From contig NC_086097.1 in NCBI RefSeq assembly GCF_963921235.1, positions 84,818,001 through 84,882,000 of the forward strand: DNA of 64,000 bases. The letters run 5' to 3'. This document shows positions 246 through 53,755 of this stretch, one piece after another. The notes beneath the pieces are model-generated. The model did not search any database, was not told where the DNA came from, and saw nothing but the letters and a program-made list of their open reading frames with translations. The position numbers were made by a program, and so were the translations under genes. The DNA comes from Mobula hypostoma (lineage: Eukaryota). Each line of letters begins with the position of its first letter. Position 1 is the stretch's first letter.

Positions 246-935
246 GCGGATGTGAGAGTCACAAGGTTCCCTGAGGTGGCTTTCTGTCGCTCCCTAATAT
301 GTGTGTGTCTGTCTTGGTATTTATCAAGTGCAATAACGATGTCTTCTCACGTTGCTGTTTATTGATTGGTACAGGGAGCTGTCCTGTATACGTCATATGA
401 AGTAATTACTCTTGTCTTTTAAATTAAGTTAGGAATTGTAATAAGGGTAGGGAAGAACAAATGAGTTCACATATAACTTGTCACATCCAAGTCATTGGGC
501 TCCCCTGATAGGGTGAAGTGACTAATCTCACAGTCCTCATGAATAACTGAACATGAAATTTATTGTCCTTGACCTATTTGAGGACAGTTTGCATTCAGCT
601 TCAACAGGAGCTTGTCTAGACTGTAGCTGGGGTCCCGTCATTTCACAGACGTTTGTGTGGCCACGTCCCCGGCTCCTTGCGTGCTTGTGCTTCTCTATCC
701 TGTAGAGAATCCAGTCTTTTTCATTCTGCTTCTGCTGCACCTATGGTTATGATGACAATGTTGGAGCCTTGGAGAGCTGAGGTATCCCCGTGGTAGATCG
801 GCGGATCCTGCAGGCACTCAAAGCATCAGAGGGAACTTACCTGTCAGCAGCTCGGCAGTGGGTCCTCAGTTAGAGTTGAGCAATAGTCTTGTGTTCCAAT
901 GAAGGACCCTCGCCTGAGACATCAACTTGCCTGAC

Positions 936-1453
936 TGTTACGGGGAAACAGACTCCCAGATTGAGTAGACATTGACAGCAAGTAAGCACGTTTACACAAA
1001 CTTTGTATTTACAAACAAATAAACACTCAACCAAAGATCTAATTCAAACAAGTACTTACTCAAGCCCCCAAGTTACAAAACAGCAAAGCTAAACATTCAG
1101 TAACGCTTCTACTGTAAGTCAAACTTATTTTGTTAAGTCCCCCATTACACAACTGCAGCATTAAACATTCAGCCAACAGGTACTTCTCCAAGTAAGGGGG
1201 CCTTCCTTTCTGCAACACTTTCCCAATGGTCCTTCGGTATTGGTCGTGACCCACTCTGCAGGTGAGCCCCTAGTCCGAGGCTTTCACACGCACCATTCTT
1301 ATACCCCTGGGGTGCCCAGAATCAGAAGACGGTGCTGTGGCTTGAAAACCAGCCAATGGGGAAGTGCTGCAGCATCCTTCGCACGGGCCAATCAGTAACT
1401 GGCAGGGTGGAAGTAGCTTTCAACCGGCAGGTAAGTTAACCCTTCACGTTACA
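936..1453 (-). mobile_element. 3' LTR of endogenous retrovirus (518 bp)
   Basis: On the minus strand it starts TGTAAC (1453) and ends GTAACA (936), an imperfect terminal inverted repeat. It is preceded by a purine-rich PPT-like tract (GAGGGGTGACT, 1454-1464) and lies directly downstream of env. It contains two ATTGG/CCAAT boxes, TATAAG (1303-1298) and a poly(A)-signal variant AATACA (1009-1004). Confidence 0.85.
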
Positions 1454-1519
1454 AGTCACCCCTCGAAAATTGAGACACCGTGACATTCGGACACCAGGCA
1501 GGGATAACCCTTGCGAATG

Positions 1520-2730
1520 CCCCACTAAACTACATATAAAACGCAAAACCTGAATACTAGTACTATCAGCCCAATGGTCACTACCCAGTCCATCAACCTC
1601 CTAATGCCCCCAAAAGCTGCCACCTTCCTTCCGGAGTGTAATAGCCATAGAACTGGTCCCCCACTTGATCTTATTCTTTAACTATTGGGTTAATCAGCCA
1701 GGTGGTGGTGGTCCCTGACACATCAGGTATGTAGGTGCAAGATCCTTGACAAATGACACCTTTCTCTGCAAGCAGGTAGCCTAAGGCTATTTGACTCTGT
1801 AAGGCAACCATTCAAATAGCCGATACTCGGATCAGCGCATACTCTGTGTGCTTGAGAGCTAGTTAGGCAGCGTCTCCAGCACAGGGGTCATACATATCAG
1901 TTCCTGGGTCTGTCTGGCTGCACCATACTGGAAGAGCTATTATCCAAAGCCTTTCTGCCTCTGTGATAGCCCTCTTCCTACACTGACCATCAGGGGCAGG
2001 GCGCTCATCCAGTGCACTGAAGTGGTATATGTACGACACCCCATAGCAGCAATCGTATCCCCCCCACCCCCACGGGGAGCCCTGGGTAGGCCCGGGAGAT
2101 CCATATCCAGTAGGTGCCATTCAGTGTCCAGGGAGTGTCCACCTTCACAGCACCGTTCCGCGTAGACACAGTCATCGCAGGATACTGCTCCTGCTCACCT
2201 TCACTGTGCTCCCCTGACAGGTTGGATCTGTGGTTACCATGCCGTCTGCATCAAATGTACCTTTCCCTTCCTGGTCGGCTGGGCAGTCACTTTCAGAGTT
2301 GGGACCTTTGGGTTAAACAAGTCATAAGTAGGGATACACCAGCCCTTAAAGCACTCACTCCACCGGGGGTCACTAGGCCTCAAGTACTTTAAGGCCGTTA
2401 CTACACGACAGGGTGAGGATGACTGGAGTGAACTATCCCCTCCCTGCTTCCCCCAAAACAAAATACCAAAGTCAGTGGAGATGGACAAGTTGCTGCAACA
2501 GTCTTTTACCTTGTCATCGAAGGGGACCGGTATTGATGGTAACCCGTCTGCAGCGTGGGCTGGAGTCCTCGTACAGACCCAGCAATCGGACATGTTACTC
2601 CTGTTTGCATATCCTTTGCGTATCCACAGGAACGTGTTATAGGACCTGCCACTGCAGCTCAGCGTCATCACCACTGCCGTTGGCGCCTGCCGCTTCACCA
2701 TTCTGCAGTGTAGGGAGATGCACACTTACT
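1520..2730 (-). pseudogene. env: ERV env, gamma-type, decayed
   Basis: SU: NTFLW..YAN.SN.SDCWVC (CXXC at 2573-2584) and NGTYWI..AY.GLP. A furin-like site (C)RKR at 1971-1979 is followed by AITEAERLWIIALP. An immunosuppressive-domain-like LQSQIALGYLLAEKGVIC lies at 1749-1802, then a shortened cysteine loop and CTYIPD. The hydrophobic anchor reads DWVVTIGLIVLVFRFCVLYVV. Multiple stops and frameshifts. Confidence 0.9.
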
Positions 2731-3300
2731 CCCTCCGGTTAATCATTAGATATGTCATTCCCAGTTCCCGCGGTAACACTACCCACAGACTATTTCCTGG
2801 TCCACTTGCCACAGTCTTCCCCTGTCCCACTGGCTGCACCCAAACCTTCCCCAGTTCCTCTTCCAACTCCACCTCCTCGAGCTCCGGAGGGTCTGACACT
2901 GCTAAATGCCGGGACACTGGGCACCCACCCAGTCTCGACAGCTGGGAGCTTAGGTGGCCCACTGCTTGCTGCAGCACACCCAGCTACTCCTGGAGGATCA
3001 GAGAAGGGGTCAAAAGCTTAATTTGTTGCTGCAGCAACCAATTCATGCATTCATGTGTTGGATCAGCCCCACTACCTGCAGCTAATATGGGATGTGAAAC
3101 ACGCACAAGATGGCAGATCCTGGGCCCAGTCCTGGACCTTTGCTCCCACAAAATGCGAGCCATTGTCTGATTGAATCTCCTAGGGGATCCCTTACATGGA
3201 TGACAAGTGCTATAACCCTTTTATTGTGTTTTCCTAGTCAGCCTGGTCAGTCGCATGGTCCCGCCACCAGGACTCCGGAATACGGCCAACATTTAGCCTT
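2726..3300 (-). pseudogene. pol: ERV pol, integrase core and C-terminal remnant
   Basis: Minus-strand frames give YSGVLVAGP...NTIKGL*HL...GSPREIQSDNGSHFVGAKVQDWAQ (SDNGSHF at 3150-3170), then HIPY*LQVVGLIQH..NWLLQQQIK, then KVWVQP...VASGPG. No RT, gag or 5' LTR is recognisable upstream. Confidence 0.85.
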
Positions 3301-4759
3301 GAGTGGGTCTCAGGCCAGATCAGAGAACCTCATAACTTCTGCAAATTTGTGTCTACTATTTCTTTTTCTTTATGACAGGACCTCTTCATCCTGTGTATTT
3401 GATCACGTTAACTAAAACAGAGTAAAGATTTGTTGATGAGGTCTTAAAATAGATAGCAATACATAACAACGTTAACTGTCATTCTCAAAGGTAATTCATC
3501 ACCTTAAACACTTTAAGGTGTTTCTCTTTAAAACTTGCAAAGCAAGGACAATTATTTACATTAAGCTATTTTTAAATATTCTAAAGTGCTGATCAGGATG
3601 GGTAATTTACATAATCATCAGAAGCATTTTGACATGTACTTCTGACGGATGAATTTAATGACATGGCTGTCTATTGAGTTAACTCAAAGCTGCAGCTATT
3701 TTTAGTTGTTTCAGCAACAGAACAGTCTCCTAATGACCAACATCCCATCATTCCTTGCTAGACACATCAAATTCTGTGAATAATCCAACCAAGACTGTCT
3801 CGTTGTTGAAATATTGCCCTCAGAAAAAGGCTCCTTGCGTCAAAACTGGAGCAAGAGACTAAAATACTTATTCTTGAGTTAGTGTAAATATCTAGCAATA
3901 TCCTGAGGAATGTTTAAGTATTATTTTATCTGCCATTTCATTGAATTAGTGTATCAAATGTTAGAAATTCTTCCTGTGGCTGCTTTTTTTTGTGCATTCG
4001 TGAATTGTGAAAGGGTACCCTGGATTGTGAGCATCACTTGAGGTATCATGATTGGCTTTAGAACCTGGTCAAAGAGAAAATGACCTGAGATTGTTATAAT
4101 CTTGAGCAGAATCCTGTGTTTCCTGCTGCAGTCTCCGTTCCTGTGAAATGTTCATAATCTGAACAGTATGCAAGTCAAAAATGTAGCCCTGCACCGAGTT
4201 CCCACAAAGCAAAAGATACCTGTGGCCCTGTAGCAGCTGGCAAATCCACCCTGCCAGTCTCCCACATACGCATTTGTATGTATGGGTCGTACATAAACAG
4301 GGGAGGTCCTGTATACTGCCCCTTGTTTCCTGCTAATTTGTCACGTGTTTCATGCTACCCTCTCCTATGTTTCTGCTGCACAACAGCACAAGAAAATAGG
4401 AACAGGAATACTCACCCAGTCCCTCGAGCTTGCCCCTCTATTCAATATGATGATGACTGACTTGTGCTGGACCCAAATCTCCTGCCACAATCTTTCAAAT
4501 ATTATTCCATCTCCACTTGAAACCTGTCTGATGACCGGGCCTCGAACATGCTCTGGGACAGAGAATCCTCGGATTCACTATCCTCGTGGGTGTCCGTGCA
4601 TATGAGCAGCCATACACACAGTGCAGTAACCTGCAAGCTGAGCGCACGCCCTGTTCACTGATCTTAAGGGTGAGGACTGAATCCATTTCAAAGATGCATA
4701 GAGTAGTGTGTCAGAGAGATTGGTTTTTCAGCCCAACATGACCATGCTGGCCCATTGAA

Positions 4760-4950: not shown

Positions 4951-5106
4951 TCATTTTTACTAATCCCATTTGCCCATATTAAGCCCCTTTCATTCTATGC
5001 CCTTGCCCAATTAAGAGCCCATCTAAATGCTGCTTAGATGTTGTCATTGGTTTAGATGCAACCACCTTTTCTCACAGCATGTTCCAGATATCAGCCACAT
5101 TCTGTG

Positions 5107-6285
5107 TAAACTGTATTTACTTGGATTATCAGAAAGCCTTTGACAAGGCACCACACATGAGGCTGCTAAAGAAGATAAGAGCCCTTGGTATTAAAGGAAA
5201 GATACCAGTATGGATAAGAATGGGCTGACTTGCAGGAGGCAGAGAGTTGGAATAGAGAAGATCTTTTCTGGCTGGCTGCTGGTGACTAGTGGTGTTCTGC
5301 AGACCGCTCCTTTTGACGTTATATGTCAATGATGTGGATGACAGAATTGATGGCTTTGTGGCCAAGTTTGCGAATGATATGAAGATAGCTGGAGGGGCAG
5401 GTAGTGCTGAGGAAGCAAGGAGTCTGCAGAAGAACTTAGATGGATTAGGAGAGTGAGCAAAGATGTGGAAGATGGAATACAGTGTAGGGAAGTGTACGGT
5501 CATGCGGTTTGGTGGAAGGAATAAAGGCATATTTTCTAAACGGTGAGAATTTGGAAATCTGAGGTACAAAGAGACTTGGAAATGCTTGTGCGGGATTCCC
5601 TAAAGGTTAATTTGCAGGTTGAATCGGTGGTAAGGAAGGCAAATGCAATGTTAGCAATCATTTTGAGAGGACTAGAATATAAAAGCAAGGATGTAATACT
5701 GAGACTTTATAAGGTATTGGTCAAACCGAGCTTGGAGTATTGTCTGCAGTTTTGTGCCCCTTAGCTAAGAAGAGACGTTCTGGCATAAGAGAGGGTCCAG
5801 GTTCTCGAGAAATATTCTGGGAACGAAACAGTTAATGTATGAGGAGCATTAGATTGGTCTGGGCCGTTCTCACTGGAGTTTAGAAAAATGAAAGGAAGAT
5901 CTGATTGAAACCTATTGAATATTGAAAAGCCAAGATACAGTGGATGTGGAGAGGATATTTCACATAGTGGGAGAGTGTGAGACCAGAGGGTGCAGCCTCA
6001 GAATCGAGAGACATCCATTTCGCACAGAGGTGAGGAAAAATTTCCTCAGCCAGAGGGAGATGAATCTGTAGAATTCTTTGCCACAGATGGATGTGCAGGT
6101 GTACTCACTGGGTATATTTAAGGCAGAGGTTGATAGATTCTTGATTAATCAGGGCATCAAAGGTTACAGGGAGATGGCAGGAGAATGGGGTTGGGAAGAA
6201 TAATAAATCAGGCAAGATGGAATGACGGAGCAGACTCAATGAGCTGAATGGGCTATTTCTGCTCCTTGGTCTTATAGTCTAAAGA
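5107..6285 (+). mobile_element. CR1-clade LINE (HER1-like), 5'-truncated
   Basis: RT motifs YLDYQKAFDKAPH and AKFAND(FADD-like), then KANAMLA.I.RGLEYKSKDVILRLYKVLVKP.LEYC. It ends in a typical CR1 3' UTR (GGCTATTTCTGCTCC...TCTTATAGTCT). Confidence 0.92.
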
Positions 6286-16352: not shown

Positions 16353-18253
16353 GTGACAGTCTTGGCTTGCTAGTAAAAGGGTAGGTTGATCAAATGGGAT
16401 CATGTGGGGAATTATGTGTGGATCACCAGAGCAGAAGAGAGTTGAAAGTAAATTTCCCTATGCCTAGGCCAAGTGACTGGGCCAAATCGGTAGACTCAGT
16501 TTTTTCTTTAATGTTTATTTTATTATATCTTTAAACATCACCTCTAGAGATGCAGTGACGGCATTTTGATGTGGAGCACTGAGCTACAGCCGCTTGTCCT
16601 CACTCTGCTGACATCACAGTCTCATCTTTGGTGGATGAAAAGGTTTGTTAGGAGTGGTGTTGTAAGTAACCAACATTTGAGTCACTGCCAGCAGCTCGCT
16701 CAGAGAAACCCTGGGACTCACGTCCCCAAGTCGCCTCAGTCAGAAGCGTAGGACACCTTGTGCTTAAGAAGGGGATGGCTCAGGCCAGTTTTGTCCTTTG
16801 TGATTAATGACCCTTTTAGCAAGAACATCAGACCGATTACTTTGCATCCAGATGGGAGAATGGTCCAATCGTGATTTGTTTTATGAGGAAGACCCAATTT
16901 CAGCTTTTTCATCTCCATGCAGGCATCCAGCAGTGCAGTCTACGCTGTTGAACAAGCGACAACAAGCATACTGCACTTCCAATTTTGGATGCACATATAC
17001 AGGTTTCCCCCGCCATCCGAAGGTAGAGCGTTCCTATGAAACGGTTCGTAAGCCGAAATGTCATAAAGCGAAGAAGCAATTACCATTTATTTATATGGGA
17101 AAACTTTGTGAGCGTTCGCAGACCCAAAAATAACCTACCAAATCATGCCAAATAACACATAAAACCTAAAATAACAGTAAAACTTAGTAAAAGCAGGAAT
17201 GATATGATAAATACACAGCCTATATAAAGTAGAAATACTTTTCCACAATCATTACTGCACTGTTCTCTGTAGCGAAAATCTCACGCAAGCGCCGTAAGCA
17301 GAAAATCTCACACAAGCGCTGTCGGCAAAAACACGGCGCAAGCGCTCTCCAGTAACCTTTAAGCTATGAAGCTGCCAAATCATACCAAATAACACGTAAA
17401 AATACACAGCCTATATAAAGTAGAAATAATGTATGTACAGTGTAGTATCACTTACCGGAATCGGGAAGACAGCGCAGAGCACACTGATGATGGTGTGTTA
17501 GGCTGAGTCGGAGTTTGGGTGGTGCAGTGGCCCCCACCCTCCAGGCCGCTGAGTGATACATTGCAGCGAAGCATGCAGGGGTGCAGCGGTATCTGGGAGG
17601 CACACAGCACATCTTTAAGAAAAAAGCCGAAACAAACATGCTAATTAATTAGGTGCCACCCGGCACGTAATTGTCGGCCCAGATCAGTGCCGATTTCCGA
17701 TCGCGTCGTCTCTGATCTGGGCCAACAACTATGTGTCGGCGGCACCTAATTAATTAACGTGTTTATTTCGGCTTTTTTCTTAAAGATGCTGTGTGCCTCC
17801 CGGCTACCATTGCATTCTCCGCGAATCGGTATCTGACTGTGGCCTGGGGGTTGGGGTGGTGGGACACTGGGGTGTCATCTCATCATCGTCTGTTTCCATT
17901 AGAGCAGGCAGCTCATCTTCTTCTATCTCTGCCCGCCTCGATATCGAAGGTCAAGGTTCGTCCTTTGCTGTGGCTGATGTGGAAGGCTTGCTTGACTGCT
18001 GAGCCTCACGCATTTTTTAATCACACAGTTCTTTGTAAGGACTCAAACCATCCTGCAAATATCCCCTAAACCGACGTACCCTTTCAAAATTAAAGTCGTA
18101 CTTTATCATTACTCATTTGGTATCGATTGTTATCTTTTTTTCTTCCAATTGCATCAGCTCTTCATCTATTAGATCTTGGTCATGGGATGCCAAAACCTCT
18201 TCAACATCATGTTCGTCAGCTTCCACAAGCCAAACTCACTTTGTCCTTACTTC

Positions 18254-18469
18254 AAACAACAGGAATTCTGCAGATGCTGGAAATTCAAGCAACACACATA
18301 AAAGTTGCTGGTGAACGCAGCAGGCTAGGCAGCATCTCTAGGAAGAGGTGCAGTCGACGTTTCAGGCCTTCGTCCTGACGAAGGGTCTCGGCCTGAAACG
18401 TCGACTGCACCTCTTCCTAGAGATGCTGCCTGGCCTGCTGCGTTCACCAGCAACTTTTATGTGTGTTGC
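18254..18469. mobile_element. Palindromic Penelope-derived insertion nested in the Tigger element
   Basis: Two inverted ~80-bp copies of the Penelope-like terminus with one mismatch, flanked by a 13-bp duplication TTGTCCTTACTTC (18241-18253, 18470-18482). Confidence 0.88.
18372..18405 (+). ncRNA. Minimal type I hammerhead ribozyme motif (Penelope-associated)
   Basis: GTC-CTGACGA-AGG(GTCTCGG)CCT-GAAA-CG-TC/GAC: CUGANGA and GAAA cores, stem II, stem I GTC/GAC, and a palindromic ACGT in place of stem III. Predicted cleavage is after 18402. Confidence 0.7.
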
Positions 18470-19521
18470 TTGTCCTTACTTCGTTCACCACGATCGAAAC
18501 GCTTAATTATGTCTAGTTTTACGCTAAGTGTAACACCCTTACGAGCTCTTTTAGGCTTTTCCAATACCATAGAACTCATCTTTCAAACGACTGCTCACAG
18601 GCATGTGTTTAAGCAATGCTGGTGAGAATGCCGTTCCAAATCCGGGGGAGAGCGGCTGCTTGGGGCGCGCGCTGCTTTTTTTTCGTAACAGTGAAAACAC
18701 CTTCTGAAAGCGAAAACAGGGTACTAATGTAGCTCTTTCGTAACAGCGAGGTTTCGTAAAGCGAATGTTTGAAAAGCGGGGGACACCTGTATTAAGTTAT
18801 AGGCTTGAATTCTGTTCCGTGGATTCAGTCTGTGGATTTTTGTTGCATTCCCGCTGTTATCCCTTACTCAGGAATACTCTGCTGTACATAATTTGAGGTG
18901 CAGTCTCACCAAGGTCCTATTTAATTTCTTGTAATATGTCATTTCTCTTATGCTCACACTGTTTGCCATTTTGCTTGCATTCCGTTATTGCTGTTTTCAA
19001 AGCTGGCACTTCCTAAGCCGTTTCCTCTTGGTTCCAGTTTTGGATATAATCTATGCTCTCTCAATCAGCCATTTGGGATGAGGTGTTTCATTCAATGTCA
19101 TGGTACTTGATCATTAAATGAACAAAGGAAGAAAAGGGGAAGGTAAACAGAAGTAAAGCAGAAAATACGGGAAATATTCAGCTCAGGCAGCATCAGTAGA
19201 GAGAGAAGCAGTTAATAATGCCATAGTTGTGTCTTTATTTTGAGGCTATTGTCTTTCCATCTCATTCAAGAGAATAGAGCAATGTGACAAAGCTTGAGAT
19301 ATTTACGTAGTCTAGAATATTTTAAGACTATTTTCTAAAATATTATTTTAATTTATACAATATGAAGTAACTCAGAATGCAGATAATCCATTTATTCTGT
19401 AAATTGCTCTTGATTTTTTCTTTGCCCTACTTGGTAAAGTACCAGCTGTGAATTTGCATATAGAAAGACAGAACTTGCATTTACGTTGTGCTATATCTCT
19501 TTCCAGCTCATCCTAACCTTT

Positions 19522-32796: not shown

Positions 32797-33045
32797 TATA
32801 GTAACTTCTACTTTGAAAAAGGACCACTCTACAACTTCATGTCGAAAGGAACAACTTTATGTGGGACGGCAAAAGCAATGTGGCGGAGGGGTTTATACGC
32901 ACATGCGCAGAAAAGACCGGAAGTAAAACCCCGCAACCCCGGAAACAACCTCTGTTTACAAACAGCTTTCCGTAGCGGGAGCTTTGGTATATTACCATTA
33001 TCTTAATTGGTATTAACTTATCCTTATAATGCTCACATTACAACA
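32797..33045 (-). mobile_element. 249-bp LTR (Gypsy-like 3' LTR) with PPT, inside the hAT element
   Basis: On the minus strand, PPT AAGCGGGGAGAAG (33058-33046) is followed by TGTTGTAATG...GTTACTATA. It is an inverted copy of 34121-34369. Confidence 0.8.
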
Positions 33046-34120
33046 CTTCTCCCCGCTTAAATTCCAAGATTCCCCAAATGTAAAAGAACTGGGAAACAAA
33101 AAACAGTGGTGTCATTAGCTTGGGTACCCCTGAAACTTACACTAGTGTCTCAGTAACAGTTTACCAATACAAAACACCTGAAACACGTGGCATATTCAAT
33201 ATTCTGTCTAACAAAGGAAATTGTCCATTCGAATATTCATTCTGTTAGGAGATTTGCGAGGGTGCTGTGCTGCAACGGTTTTTTGACTTGCTGCCTGAGA
33301 TAAAGAAACGAGGAGCACGAGGAACTGTCAGATGATGTGTGGCTACTGGATTTAGGGTTTCTGACAGACCTAATGGCTAAATTAAACGCACTTAACAACG
33401 AGCTCGTGGGAAAAGACCGACACCTGCCCCACATGATAAGCGCAGTAAATGTGTTTAAGGCCAAGCTCGGGTGTTTGGATTTCAAATTTAAAGAACAGGA
33501 GGGTGACACACTTTCCCAACTTGGAGAAGCAGTTATAGGCCATCAAGGGAAAAAAAGAACGCTTTTCACCCTGAACAGTACTGTGCTTACCTAGACAAAC
33601 TGGCAATAGAGTTTGTTTGGCGTTTTGGGGAGATAAATGCCATGAAAGATATTACTGCATTTATTTCAAACCCATTTCTGTTGATCGATACAGAACAGGT
33701 AGGAATTCCAGCCAGTATTTGGTGTGCCAAGTGATGTAGAAAAGGAAATAATTGATTTGCAAAATGACATCGAGCTTAAAGCAAGATCAAGGGATGGTGA
33801 CTTTTGGGGCTTGTCAGCAGGGAGAAGTTTCCTCATCTCACCACACGTGCACTAAAAGTCAGTGCCTACTTCGGGTCAACTTATCTGTGTGAAATTGCAC
33901 ATTCACAGAAGAAAATTATTAAATCTAAGTACAGGAGCTGTCTTACTTTCAGACACCTCACAGACTGTCTCAGTCTGGCTGTCTGTAGTTATGAGCCAAA
34001 TTTCAGAGAACTAGCAGAAAGTATTCAGCCCCAGTCATCACACTGAGTGCAACAGTCAATTTTTATTCATTTATTTTTCGTGTCGAAATAAAATTAAATA
34101 ATGAAACTTAGAATTAAAGG

Positions 34121-34369
34121 TGTTGTAATGTGAGCATTATAAAGATAAGTTAATACTAATTAGGATAATGGTAATATAGCAATACTCCCGCTACGGAAAG
34201 CTGTTTGTAAACAGAGGTTGTTTCCTGGGTTGCGGGATTTTATTTCTGGTCTTTTCTGCGCATGTGTGTGTATGCCCCTCTGCCGCATTGGTTTTGCCAT
34301 CCCAGATAAAGTTGTTCCTTTGGACATGAAGTTGTCAAGTGGTCCTTTTTCAAAGTAGAAGTTACTACA
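34121..34369 (+). mobile_element. 249-bp LTR copy inside the hAT element
   Basis: TGTTGTAATG...GTTACTACA. I counted 23 mismatches and no gaps against the reverse complement of 32797-33045. No TSD seen. Confidence 0.8.
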
Positions 34370-39349: not shown

Positions 39350-39842
39350 ACGGAGAGGGTCCAAAGGAGGTTCATGAGAATAATCCCAAGAATGAAAGGT
39401 TAATGTATGAAGAGCGTTTGGTGGTTCTGGTCCTGTACTCACTGGAGTTTAAAAGAATGAGCGAGAATCTCATTGAAACCTATCAAATACGGAAAGGCCT
39501 AGATAAAGTGGATGTGGAGAGGATGTTTCTTATTGTGGGAAGGTCTAGGACCAGAGGGCCAGCCTCAGAATAGAAGGATGTTCCTTTAAAACAAAATTTC
39601 TTTGGCCAGACAAAGGTGAATCTTCGGAATTCATTGCCACAGACAGCTGTGGAGGCCAAGTCATTGGGTACATTTAAAGCAGTGGTTGATAGATTCTTGA
39701 TCAGTAGGGGTGTCAAAGGCTATGGGGAGAAGGTAACAAAATGGGTTTGAGAGGGATAATAAATCAGTCATGATTGAAAGGCAGAGGAGAGTAGATGGGC
39801 TGAATGGCCCAATTAACTCCTAAGTCTTCTGGTCTTATGGAT
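39350..39842 (+). mobile_element. CR1 LINE 3' fragment
   Basis: LMYEERL...LYSLEFKRMSENLIETYQIRKGLDKVDVERMF plus a CR1 3' UTR. Confidence 0.9.
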
Positions 39843-46210: not shown

Positions 46211-46690
46211 TGTTGCCATGTTAGGGTTGTGGCAGTGTGACCTCTGACTGACTCGAATTCTACCTAGAGTTGTCAACTAGGGGTTGGTTTACTTGTCGGT
46301 CGAAAGCCACTTCTACTGTGCTGGTCACCAATTGGCCTGTTTGAAGTCTGTAGCAGCTCTGTCCCATTGGTTGTGTTGTGTGCCATGGCACCAATATCTG
46401 GTTTCAGGCACTTCAGGGGTATAAGAATAGCACTTGCAGGACGCGTGGCCTCTCTTTCCCTTTGTCTCCAGGGGCTCCTCTTCAGTGATCAGTGCTGAAG
46501 AACCACTGGGAAAATATGCTCCAGACGTGCACTCTTATGTATCTGTTTGTTGAATATTTAGCTTTGTAGTTTGTGTAACTCGTATTTGGTAAAATCTTTC
46601 ACTATTTGTAAATAAATGAGTAATATGCTTATTTGTAATTGGTGTCTTCTGCCTCACTCACCAAACCCGTGAACCTGCTTCTACATTACA
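46211..46690 (+). mobile_element. Solo LTR related to the ERV LTR at 936-1453
   Basis: TG...TTACA ends with flanks AAAGT/AAAGG (4/5 TSD); TATAAG at 46420 and AATAAA at 46611. 46281-46430 aligns without gaps to the reverse complement of 1293-1442 (105/150 identical). The left end could alternatively be 46219. Confidence 0.85.
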
Positions 46691-53324: not shown

Positions 53325-53755
53325 TATAAGACCATAAAATATAGGAGCAGAATTAGACCATTTGGCCCATCAAGTCTGCTCTGACATTTCATCATGGTTG
53401 ATCCATTTCCCTCTCAGGCACATTCTCCTGCCTTCTCCTGTATCCCTTCTTGCCCTGACTAATCAAGAATCTGTCAACCTCTGCCTTAAGTATATCCAAT
53501 GACTTGGCCTCCAAATCCACCTATGGCAATGAAGTCCACAGATTGACCACTCTCTGGCTGAAGAAATTCCTCCTCATCTCTTTTCTAAAGGGACACCCCT
53601 CTGTTTTGAGGCTTTGCCCTCTGGTCTTAGACGCTCCCACTGGAGGAAACATCTTCTCCACATCCACTCTATTGAAGCCTTTCATCATTTGATAGGTTTC
53701 ACTGAGGTCATCCCTTATTCTTCTGAATTCCAGTGTATACACGTCCAGAGCCATC
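53325..53755 (-). mobile_element. CR1 LINE 3' fragment
   Basis: ORF 53521-53757 reads YTLEFRRIRDDLSETY...EMRRNFFSQRVVNLWTSLP; tail ATAAGACCATAA. Confidence 0.9.

Follow-up and report, generated by a model that had tools for sequence, protein, structure and literature searches.

The window, the whole 64-kb (64,000-nt) stretch of DNA analyzed, carries on its minus strand, between ~3290 and 936, the 3′ end of a provirus consisting of an integrase (IN) core and tail, env, a purine tract, and an LTR (Table 1). Motif positions were taken from minus-strand translations and a motif map. All the IN motifs and all the env motifs (CWVC, RKR, the ISD-like stretch, CTYIPD, and the TM anchor) named in the initial annotation were recovered on this strand. 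To define the boundaries, public contigs from four runs (X1, X5, X11, and X9) were aligned over positions 300 to 4100. The start of the LTR at 1453 is fixed independently, since contigs depart from the window there in four of four runs; in the three runs with several such contigs, the departing sequences are unlike flanks (agreement of 0.45 to 0.49). At the other end, contig depth steps at ~935 in three DNA-type runs.

Table 1. Features of the proviral remnant (positions in the window).
Feature	Position	Strand	Remarks
3′ LTR	936..1453	-	518 bp; TGT...ACA ends; TATA-like box near 1300
PPT candidate	1454..1466	-	short purine-rich tract directly 5′ of LTR; putative function inferred from position
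env TM	1528..1970	-	with fusion-peptide region, stops, one frame change
Membrane anchor	1584-1528	-	19 hydrophobic residues
Shortened CX6CC region	1751-1722	-	CTYIPD ends at 1722
ISD-like stretch	1802-1770	-	degenerate; aligns to ISD of P0004 and P0005
Furin-like RKR	1979-1971	-	
env signal region and SU	1971..2701	-	two frame changes; shortened middle part
CWVC (CXXC of SU)	2584-2573	-	aligns with same motif in P0004, P0005, P0007
env candidate ATG	2701	-	
IN core and tail	2726..3290	-	catalytic core, beginning past first catalytic Asp region, and ERV-L/S-type C-terminal tail
IN stop	2728-2726	-	
GPGN	2803-2792	-	IN tail
KVWV	2848-2837	-	IN tail
LLQQQIK	3037-3017	-	IN motif
HIPY	3096-3085	-	IN motif
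VQDWA	3137-3123	-	IN motif
EIQSDNGSHF	3179-3150	-	IN motif
TIKGL	3227-3213	-	IN motif
YSG	3282-3274	-	IN motif
Approximate 5′ breakpoint	3290..3347		homology and multi-copy depth stop

No gag, protease, reverse transcriptase (RT), or 5′ LTR was found in the window, including the 60 kb beyond the 5′ breakpoint. With these parts missing and both IN and env broken, the copy is dead and 5′-truncated, as initially annotated, and is predicted to make no working protein. Because both ends of the LTR are complete, we discounted the idea of a 5′-truncated retrocopy of viral RNA. The 64-kb window holds no second copy of the 936-1453 LTR; the sole related LTR sequence, ~70% alike, lies at 46281-46428. 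It belongs to a solo-LTR candidate on the plus strand (46211-46690; a 148-nt stretch is 70% alike to the LTR of the element) with TGT...ACA ends, which were picked by eye, and 5-bp flanks that agree at four of five positions. A target-site duplication of 5 bp is, together with a Gag that has no zinc finger, a mark of the ERV3 branch.

Several other features of the window are recorded here. An open stretch of 53 codons at 94-252 on the plus strand, with a GT donor-like site after it, may be an exon of the host, in which case the provirus would sit antisense within an intron; the stretch has no Pfam match and no PDB match. Inverted arms of 248 nt, 91% complementary and 1073 nt apart (32799-34367), have the look of a nonautonomous DNA transposon. 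Two inverted repeats, both short and near-perfect, lie at 18286-18472 (83-nt arms, 99%, with a 21-nt spacer) and 17603-17795 (58-nt arms, 88%). A degraded LINE-like reverse-transcriptase remnant occupies 5100-6260, with related copies at ~39400-39800 and 53400-53750.

When the IN pieces were aligned to relatives, six stops and three frame changes were counted. The initial motif reading stands overall with two corrections, one in env (CX6CC, see below) and one in IN, where "GSPREIQ" is a blend of two overlapping frames. The Pfam rve model gave an E value of 0.0016 in the window, which is under its cut-off and weak on its own. In tblastn comparisons, the three best of 30 Pol references, from a stingray (E of 2e-21), a dUTPase-bearing Pol (2e-17), and an electric ray (2e-15), scored above chance, as the best E in a shuffle control (n = 20) was 1e-5 and the median was 0.006. 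A word-index homolog search with a 69-residue IN piece returned no candidate, and matches of the IN piece to PDB were weak (best E of 0.2, to foamy and other integrases).

The SDNGSHF peptide, initially taken as a class III sign, turned out not to be diagnostic; it is also present in class I-type fish Pols (P0026, P0027, P0075, and L042) and in Gypsy integrases. A pattern search with IQSDNGSHF found 17 loci, and among the seven listed with the exact peptide, L008 alone reads as retroviral. L008, a metagenome contig of 6340 bp, is a bird-type class III provirus; the reading frames at its env position have no Pfam env match, unlike the gamma-type env of the window element. Four further loci (L001, L004, L005, and L012) encode near-identical nonretroviral integrases that share the peptide, L001 being an IMG/VR contig with large neighboring open reading frames.

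Class III relatives were collected with a profile of the window's own pieces and bird-type L008, and their sample is therefore biased. The profile retrieved 21 proteins from 2893 candidates, including Pols of Hemitrygon akajei and Narcine bancroftii and a Pol with a dUTPase. The IN trees were built without five of the 21 clusters (P0011, P0012, P0021, P0024, and P0025, which are partial or redundant) and without redundant virus loci, and with P0029 and P0075 in place of P0013 and P0019. Virus references were taken from IMG/VR; we take them to be gamma, epsilon, SSSV-like, SnRV-like, and delta on the basis of genome length and motifs, and the foamy label comes from a PDB match. The resulting alignment has 31 rows and 170 columns, with breaks in the window sequence read as X; the window fills 123 of these columns only, and its branch is long (0.93).

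In the IN tree, the window groups with stingray P0029 and electric-ray P0015 (support of 88/87), this ray group is joined by dUTPase-bearing P0017 (89/87), and the window lies within a class III clade of 10 rows that also includes bird and turtle elements (99/98), separate from the 13 class I rows. Without the long delta row, the same clades were obtained at 93/87, 93/88, and 100/97. Support for the ray subgroup is below 95 and the tree does not fix the sub-lineage; the class III clade is recognized by the marks of its members, the named HERV-S, HERV-L, XtERV-S, ERV4, and Ovex1 not being among the rows. A quick RT tree of the relatives agrees, placing the nearest relative with the dUTPase-bearing Pol and the bird and turtle elements (support of 99). 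Since RT is missing from the window copy, the standard RT-based classifier is inapplicable to it, and the Pol phylogeny that marks the ERV3 (ERV-L/ERV-S) branch was recovered on IN only.

The nearest Pol relatives found are those of H. akajei (XP_072898008.1 and XP_072891825.1) and N. bancroftii (XP_069782200.1), the closest sharing 53% identity over the 123 IN columns. At such distance the Pol and Env relatives in RefSeq represent distinct families, annotated as uncharacterized, Fv1-like, or PABLB-like. Fv1 is of ERV-L origin. In the stingray cluster, six of 13 members are named Fv1-like, and Fv1 is homologous to an ERV gag (PMC3948346). The P0013/P0029 cluster of H. akajei RefSeq proteins comprises several gag-pol models of 1,520 to 1,579 residues besides the six Fv1-like ones, all of one ERV-L-type family; the long open models, which are automatic predictions, suggest that this family is young. 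Relatives of the window IN show HX4HX28CX2C, YIDD, and DYRxxN, which are listed for ERV-L and XtERV-S in Table 2 of PMC8278194.

The IN tail of the window aligns to the tails of P0029 and P0017, both of which are without GPY/F. MLVIN_C, the GPY/F domain, had no match in the window and is carried by the class I control P0075. Lack of GPY/F, which the window IN shares, is a mark of the ERV3 branch (PMC4299795, Table 1). The dUTPase at the 3′ end of pol that marks ERV-L proper and XtERV-S is absent: With the P0017 domain as a query, nothing was found in the window at E ≤ 1, and only ~27 codons are present in the window where P0017 holds the domain.

The envelope was initially annotated as gamma-type, and matches to SU, TLV_coat in the relatives, and the TM alignment and tree all bear this out. 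Two marks of gamma-type Env, CXXC in SU and an ISD in TM, are present. A third, CX6CC, is not intact in the window copy, where the stretch falls four residues short of its length in relatives and shows only two cysteines, spaced three residues apart. CX6CC is intact in three full-length relatives, and we read its shortening as decay of the copy, not as family-wide absence. The region 2701-2237 has no stops, and the mean hydropathy of the anchor is 2.68, against 0.92 and 1.05 for the two alternative frames. Three stops and three frame changes were counted in the aligned env pieces, and a co-opted env was rejected on these grounds.

A HMMER scan with 3088-2234 gave four matches, all four to SU. 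The two named ones are "PABLB-like" (an automatic best-hit name) envs of Pristis pectinata and Scyliorhinus canicula, the other two are unnamed, and three of the four contain TLV_coat. The P. pectinata env (XP_051893589.1) is 38% identical over the matched SU stretch and 34% in TM; in a pairwise comparison, the window TM matched this sawfish env at E of 5e-20. The env group already figures in shark and ray annotations. In the window, no Pfam env family was matched. A word-index homolog search with the SU piece gave 224 candidates, none at E ≤ 0.001; no env relatives were found in viral or metagenome contigs, and the TM piece had no PDB match. In a TM tree of 13 rows, the window and four fish rows (relatives and an SSSV-like env) stand apart from mammalian gamma and delta envelopes (100/100); with long branches and seven of 10 inner branches open, this tree cannot name an env donor.

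Overall, the element is very probably the 3′ third of a class III provirus of the ERV-L/ERV-S (ERV3, HSERVIII) branch. It would follow the plan of HERV-S, in which a short-tailed integrase without dUTPase is followed by a PABL-like gamma-type env, a PPT, and an LTR. Grouping with HERV-S and a primer-binding site for serine tRNA are criteria for ERV-S; the window copy has lost this site. A class III Pol without dUTPase joined to a class I env, as the sequence reads here, is the ERV-S (HERV-S-like) combination (PMC4724089 and PMC8278194).

The pairing itself, initially thought to be possibly undescribed, is of a known kind, having been described in HERV-S, HERVL32, HERVL66, XtERV-S, and ERV-SA.a-Ppe. 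The envelope of HERV-S is of class I, with PRIMA41 and PABL as its relatives; HERV-S, HERVL32, and HERVL66 lack dUTPase (PMC4724089). These elements of the HSERVIII supergroup differ in having mammalian hosts, and the likeness is one of description. XtERV-S of the frog likewise joins an ERV-L-related gag-pol to a gamma-type env with CXXC near the SU N terminus, an ISD, and CX6CC (PMC8278194); however, it is intact and young with a dUTPase in the IN region, whereas the window copy is old and broken and has no dUTPase. ERV-SA.a-Ppe, from an anamniote, joins a Pol of class III to a gamma-type env of class I, and the same survey found gamma-type envs in six cartilaginous fish (bioRxiv 2021.11.23.469661). 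"Ppe", unexpanded in the text, possibly stands for P. pectinata, the sawfish. Compared by description, ERV-SA.a-Ppe could be of the window family's lineage or of another; one difference is that its authors name their class III group SnRV-related. The ERV3 and ERV4 elements of crocodilians and turtles resemble the window element by description in lacking GPY/F and having env, and some ERV3 and all ERV4 are without dUTPase; they differ in their reptile hosts (PMC4299795). SnRV-like and epsilon-like lineages are reported from cartilaginous fish (PMC4422223 and PMC4977317), and the clade that includes class III ERVs has hosts in every major vertebrate group (PMC6001957). A literature search, with most subscription journals, Repbase, and Dfam outside its scope, found no publication devoted to a ray ERV-L/S family, and the accessible parts of PMC9967133, PMC10536682, PMC12690878, PMC12386078, PMC10435555, and PMC10699275 held nothing on the family beyond XtERV-S restated. 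The particular family may be unnamed.

Where the env came from is a separate matter. That a ray or shark class III virus took the env of a co-resident class I virus in a lineage-specific capture is a serious possibility, to which we give somewhat less than an even chance; it is compatible with the class III provirus reading and concerns the origin of env only. Class III ERVs are described as having often captured an env (PMC4724089 and bioRxiv 2021.11.23.469661), every class III envelope found in PMC4724089 clustered with class I, and the closest env relatives of the window are other chondrichthyan envs whose linked pol is not visible. However, no breakpoint or donor was seen, the IN stop and the env start are collinear and 24 nt apart, and the PABL-related env of HERV-S (PMC4724089) fits an old pairing equally well.

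Assignment of Pol to another non-class I/II branch (ERV4 or SnRV/Ovex1-like) instead of ERV-L/ERV-S is improbable. ERV4, whose one defining feature is its position in the Pol phylogeny and which has an env and neither dUTPase nor GPY/F, would look similar (PMC4299795), the comparison rows included no ERV4 reference, and the anamniote survey calls its class III group "SnRV-related" (bioRxiv 2021.11.23.469661). On the other hand, the SnRV-like reference L041 falls outside the clade of the window and has GP[YF], the sister row of the ray group has a dUTPase in IN, which is a mark of ERV3 and not of ERV4 (PMC4299795), and that paper did not find ERV4 beyond crocodilians and turtles.

We regard a class I (gamma or epsilon) IN in agreement with env, that is, an ordinary class I fish ERV, as very hard to sustain, although SDNGSHF occurs in class I-type fish Pols and, in the anamniote survey, epsilon- and gamma-related Pol groups carry gamma-type env (bioRxiv 2021.11.23.469661). 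Grouping of IN with epsilon or gamma retroviruses, which would have overturned the initial class III (ERV-L/ERV-S-like) assignment, was rejected by the AU test (p = 0.00027), so that the IN trees, this test, and tblastn against shuffles all uphold that assignment. All 13 class I references gave E values of 1e-5 or weaker and are thus inside the shuffle noise. In 13 of 13, GP[YFH] is found downstream of the catalytic Asp, 156 to 166 residues on in 12 of them, whereas the IN of the window ends ~145 residues past this Asp with a different tail. Neither the Pol phylogeny nor the GPY/F tail of class I was therefore found.

That IN and env stem from separate, unrelated insertions brought together by chance or by misassembly is scarcely credible. 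While none of the contigs covers the stretch from end to end and the linkage was not seen in paralogous copies, contigs of organisms A (2464-2916), B (2531-4100), and C (2451-2984) each cross the IN-env junction, the genes are ordered and spaced as in a single provirus, and IN ends like P0029 and P0017.

The same contigs bear on the number and age of the copies. In runs X1, which may come from the source sample, and X5, depth was 8 to 9 in both flanks versus ~18 to 255 between 935 and 3347. The numbers of aligned contigs were 302 (X1), 327 (X5), and 287 (X11), most of them less than 95% alike. The depth pattern marks a multi-copy, diverged family; depth is not a copy number. Run X9, which is RNA only by guess, covers flank and element alike.

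Contigs of organism B cross both junctions, with 16 differences and 14 gap letters in 1231 positions over 300-1542 and 25 differences in about 1570 over 2531-4100; both the insertion and the truncation are therefore shared. A contig of organism C crosses the LTR junction (507-992) and shows 31 differences in 486; contigs of this organism from inside the element diverge to a like extent, 6 to 7% (16/266, 24/372, 39/547, and 14/225), as expected of an orthologous copy decaying along with its flank; 3348-4100 had no cover in this organism. The insertion site is common to the window organism and two others.

A possible history of the element can be outlined from these observations. The source would have been an enveloped retrovirus with SU and TM tied by the CXXC-CX6CC disulfide and cleavage at RKR. 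Viruses with this Env build can spread by reinfection. For gamma-type Env, PMC8278194 describes cleavage of the precursor at a furin site and a link between SU and TM through that disulfide. Judging from the named nearest relatives, the host would be a cartilaginous fish; such a virus would have spread, presumably by infection, in an ancestral ray or shark and multiplied to many copies in its germ line. The copy in the window probably integrated normally, as its complete LTR suggests, before the three sampled organisms split. All sequence 5′ of the integrase core would have been lost before the split of organisms A and B, presumably by deletion, and what remained would have decayed since, probably neutrally.

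The locus would stand as a record of the ERV-L/ERV-S branch with a gamma-type env reaching cartilaginous fish. Accounts of ERVs in these hosts stress SnRV-like, epsilon-like, and foamy-like lineages (PMC4422223, PMC4977317, and PMC10699275). The finding also bears on a question posed in PMC4724089: Did class III ERVs possess their own envelope, or did they repeatedly capture class I envelopes? One truncated copy is too little to decide between the two. A bolder proposal, which we consider unlikely but worth stating, is that rays harbor an ERV-L/S lineage that bears env, is long-lived, and has so far gone undescribed; old shared insertions such as the one in the window and the long open gag-pol models of the red stingray would both belong to it. 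If, in addition, Pol and the PABL-like env follow one another from cartilaginous fish through amphibians to HERV-S, the pairing would be ancestral, as old as jawed vertebrates, and no product of repeated env capture, and ERV-L without env would represent loss.
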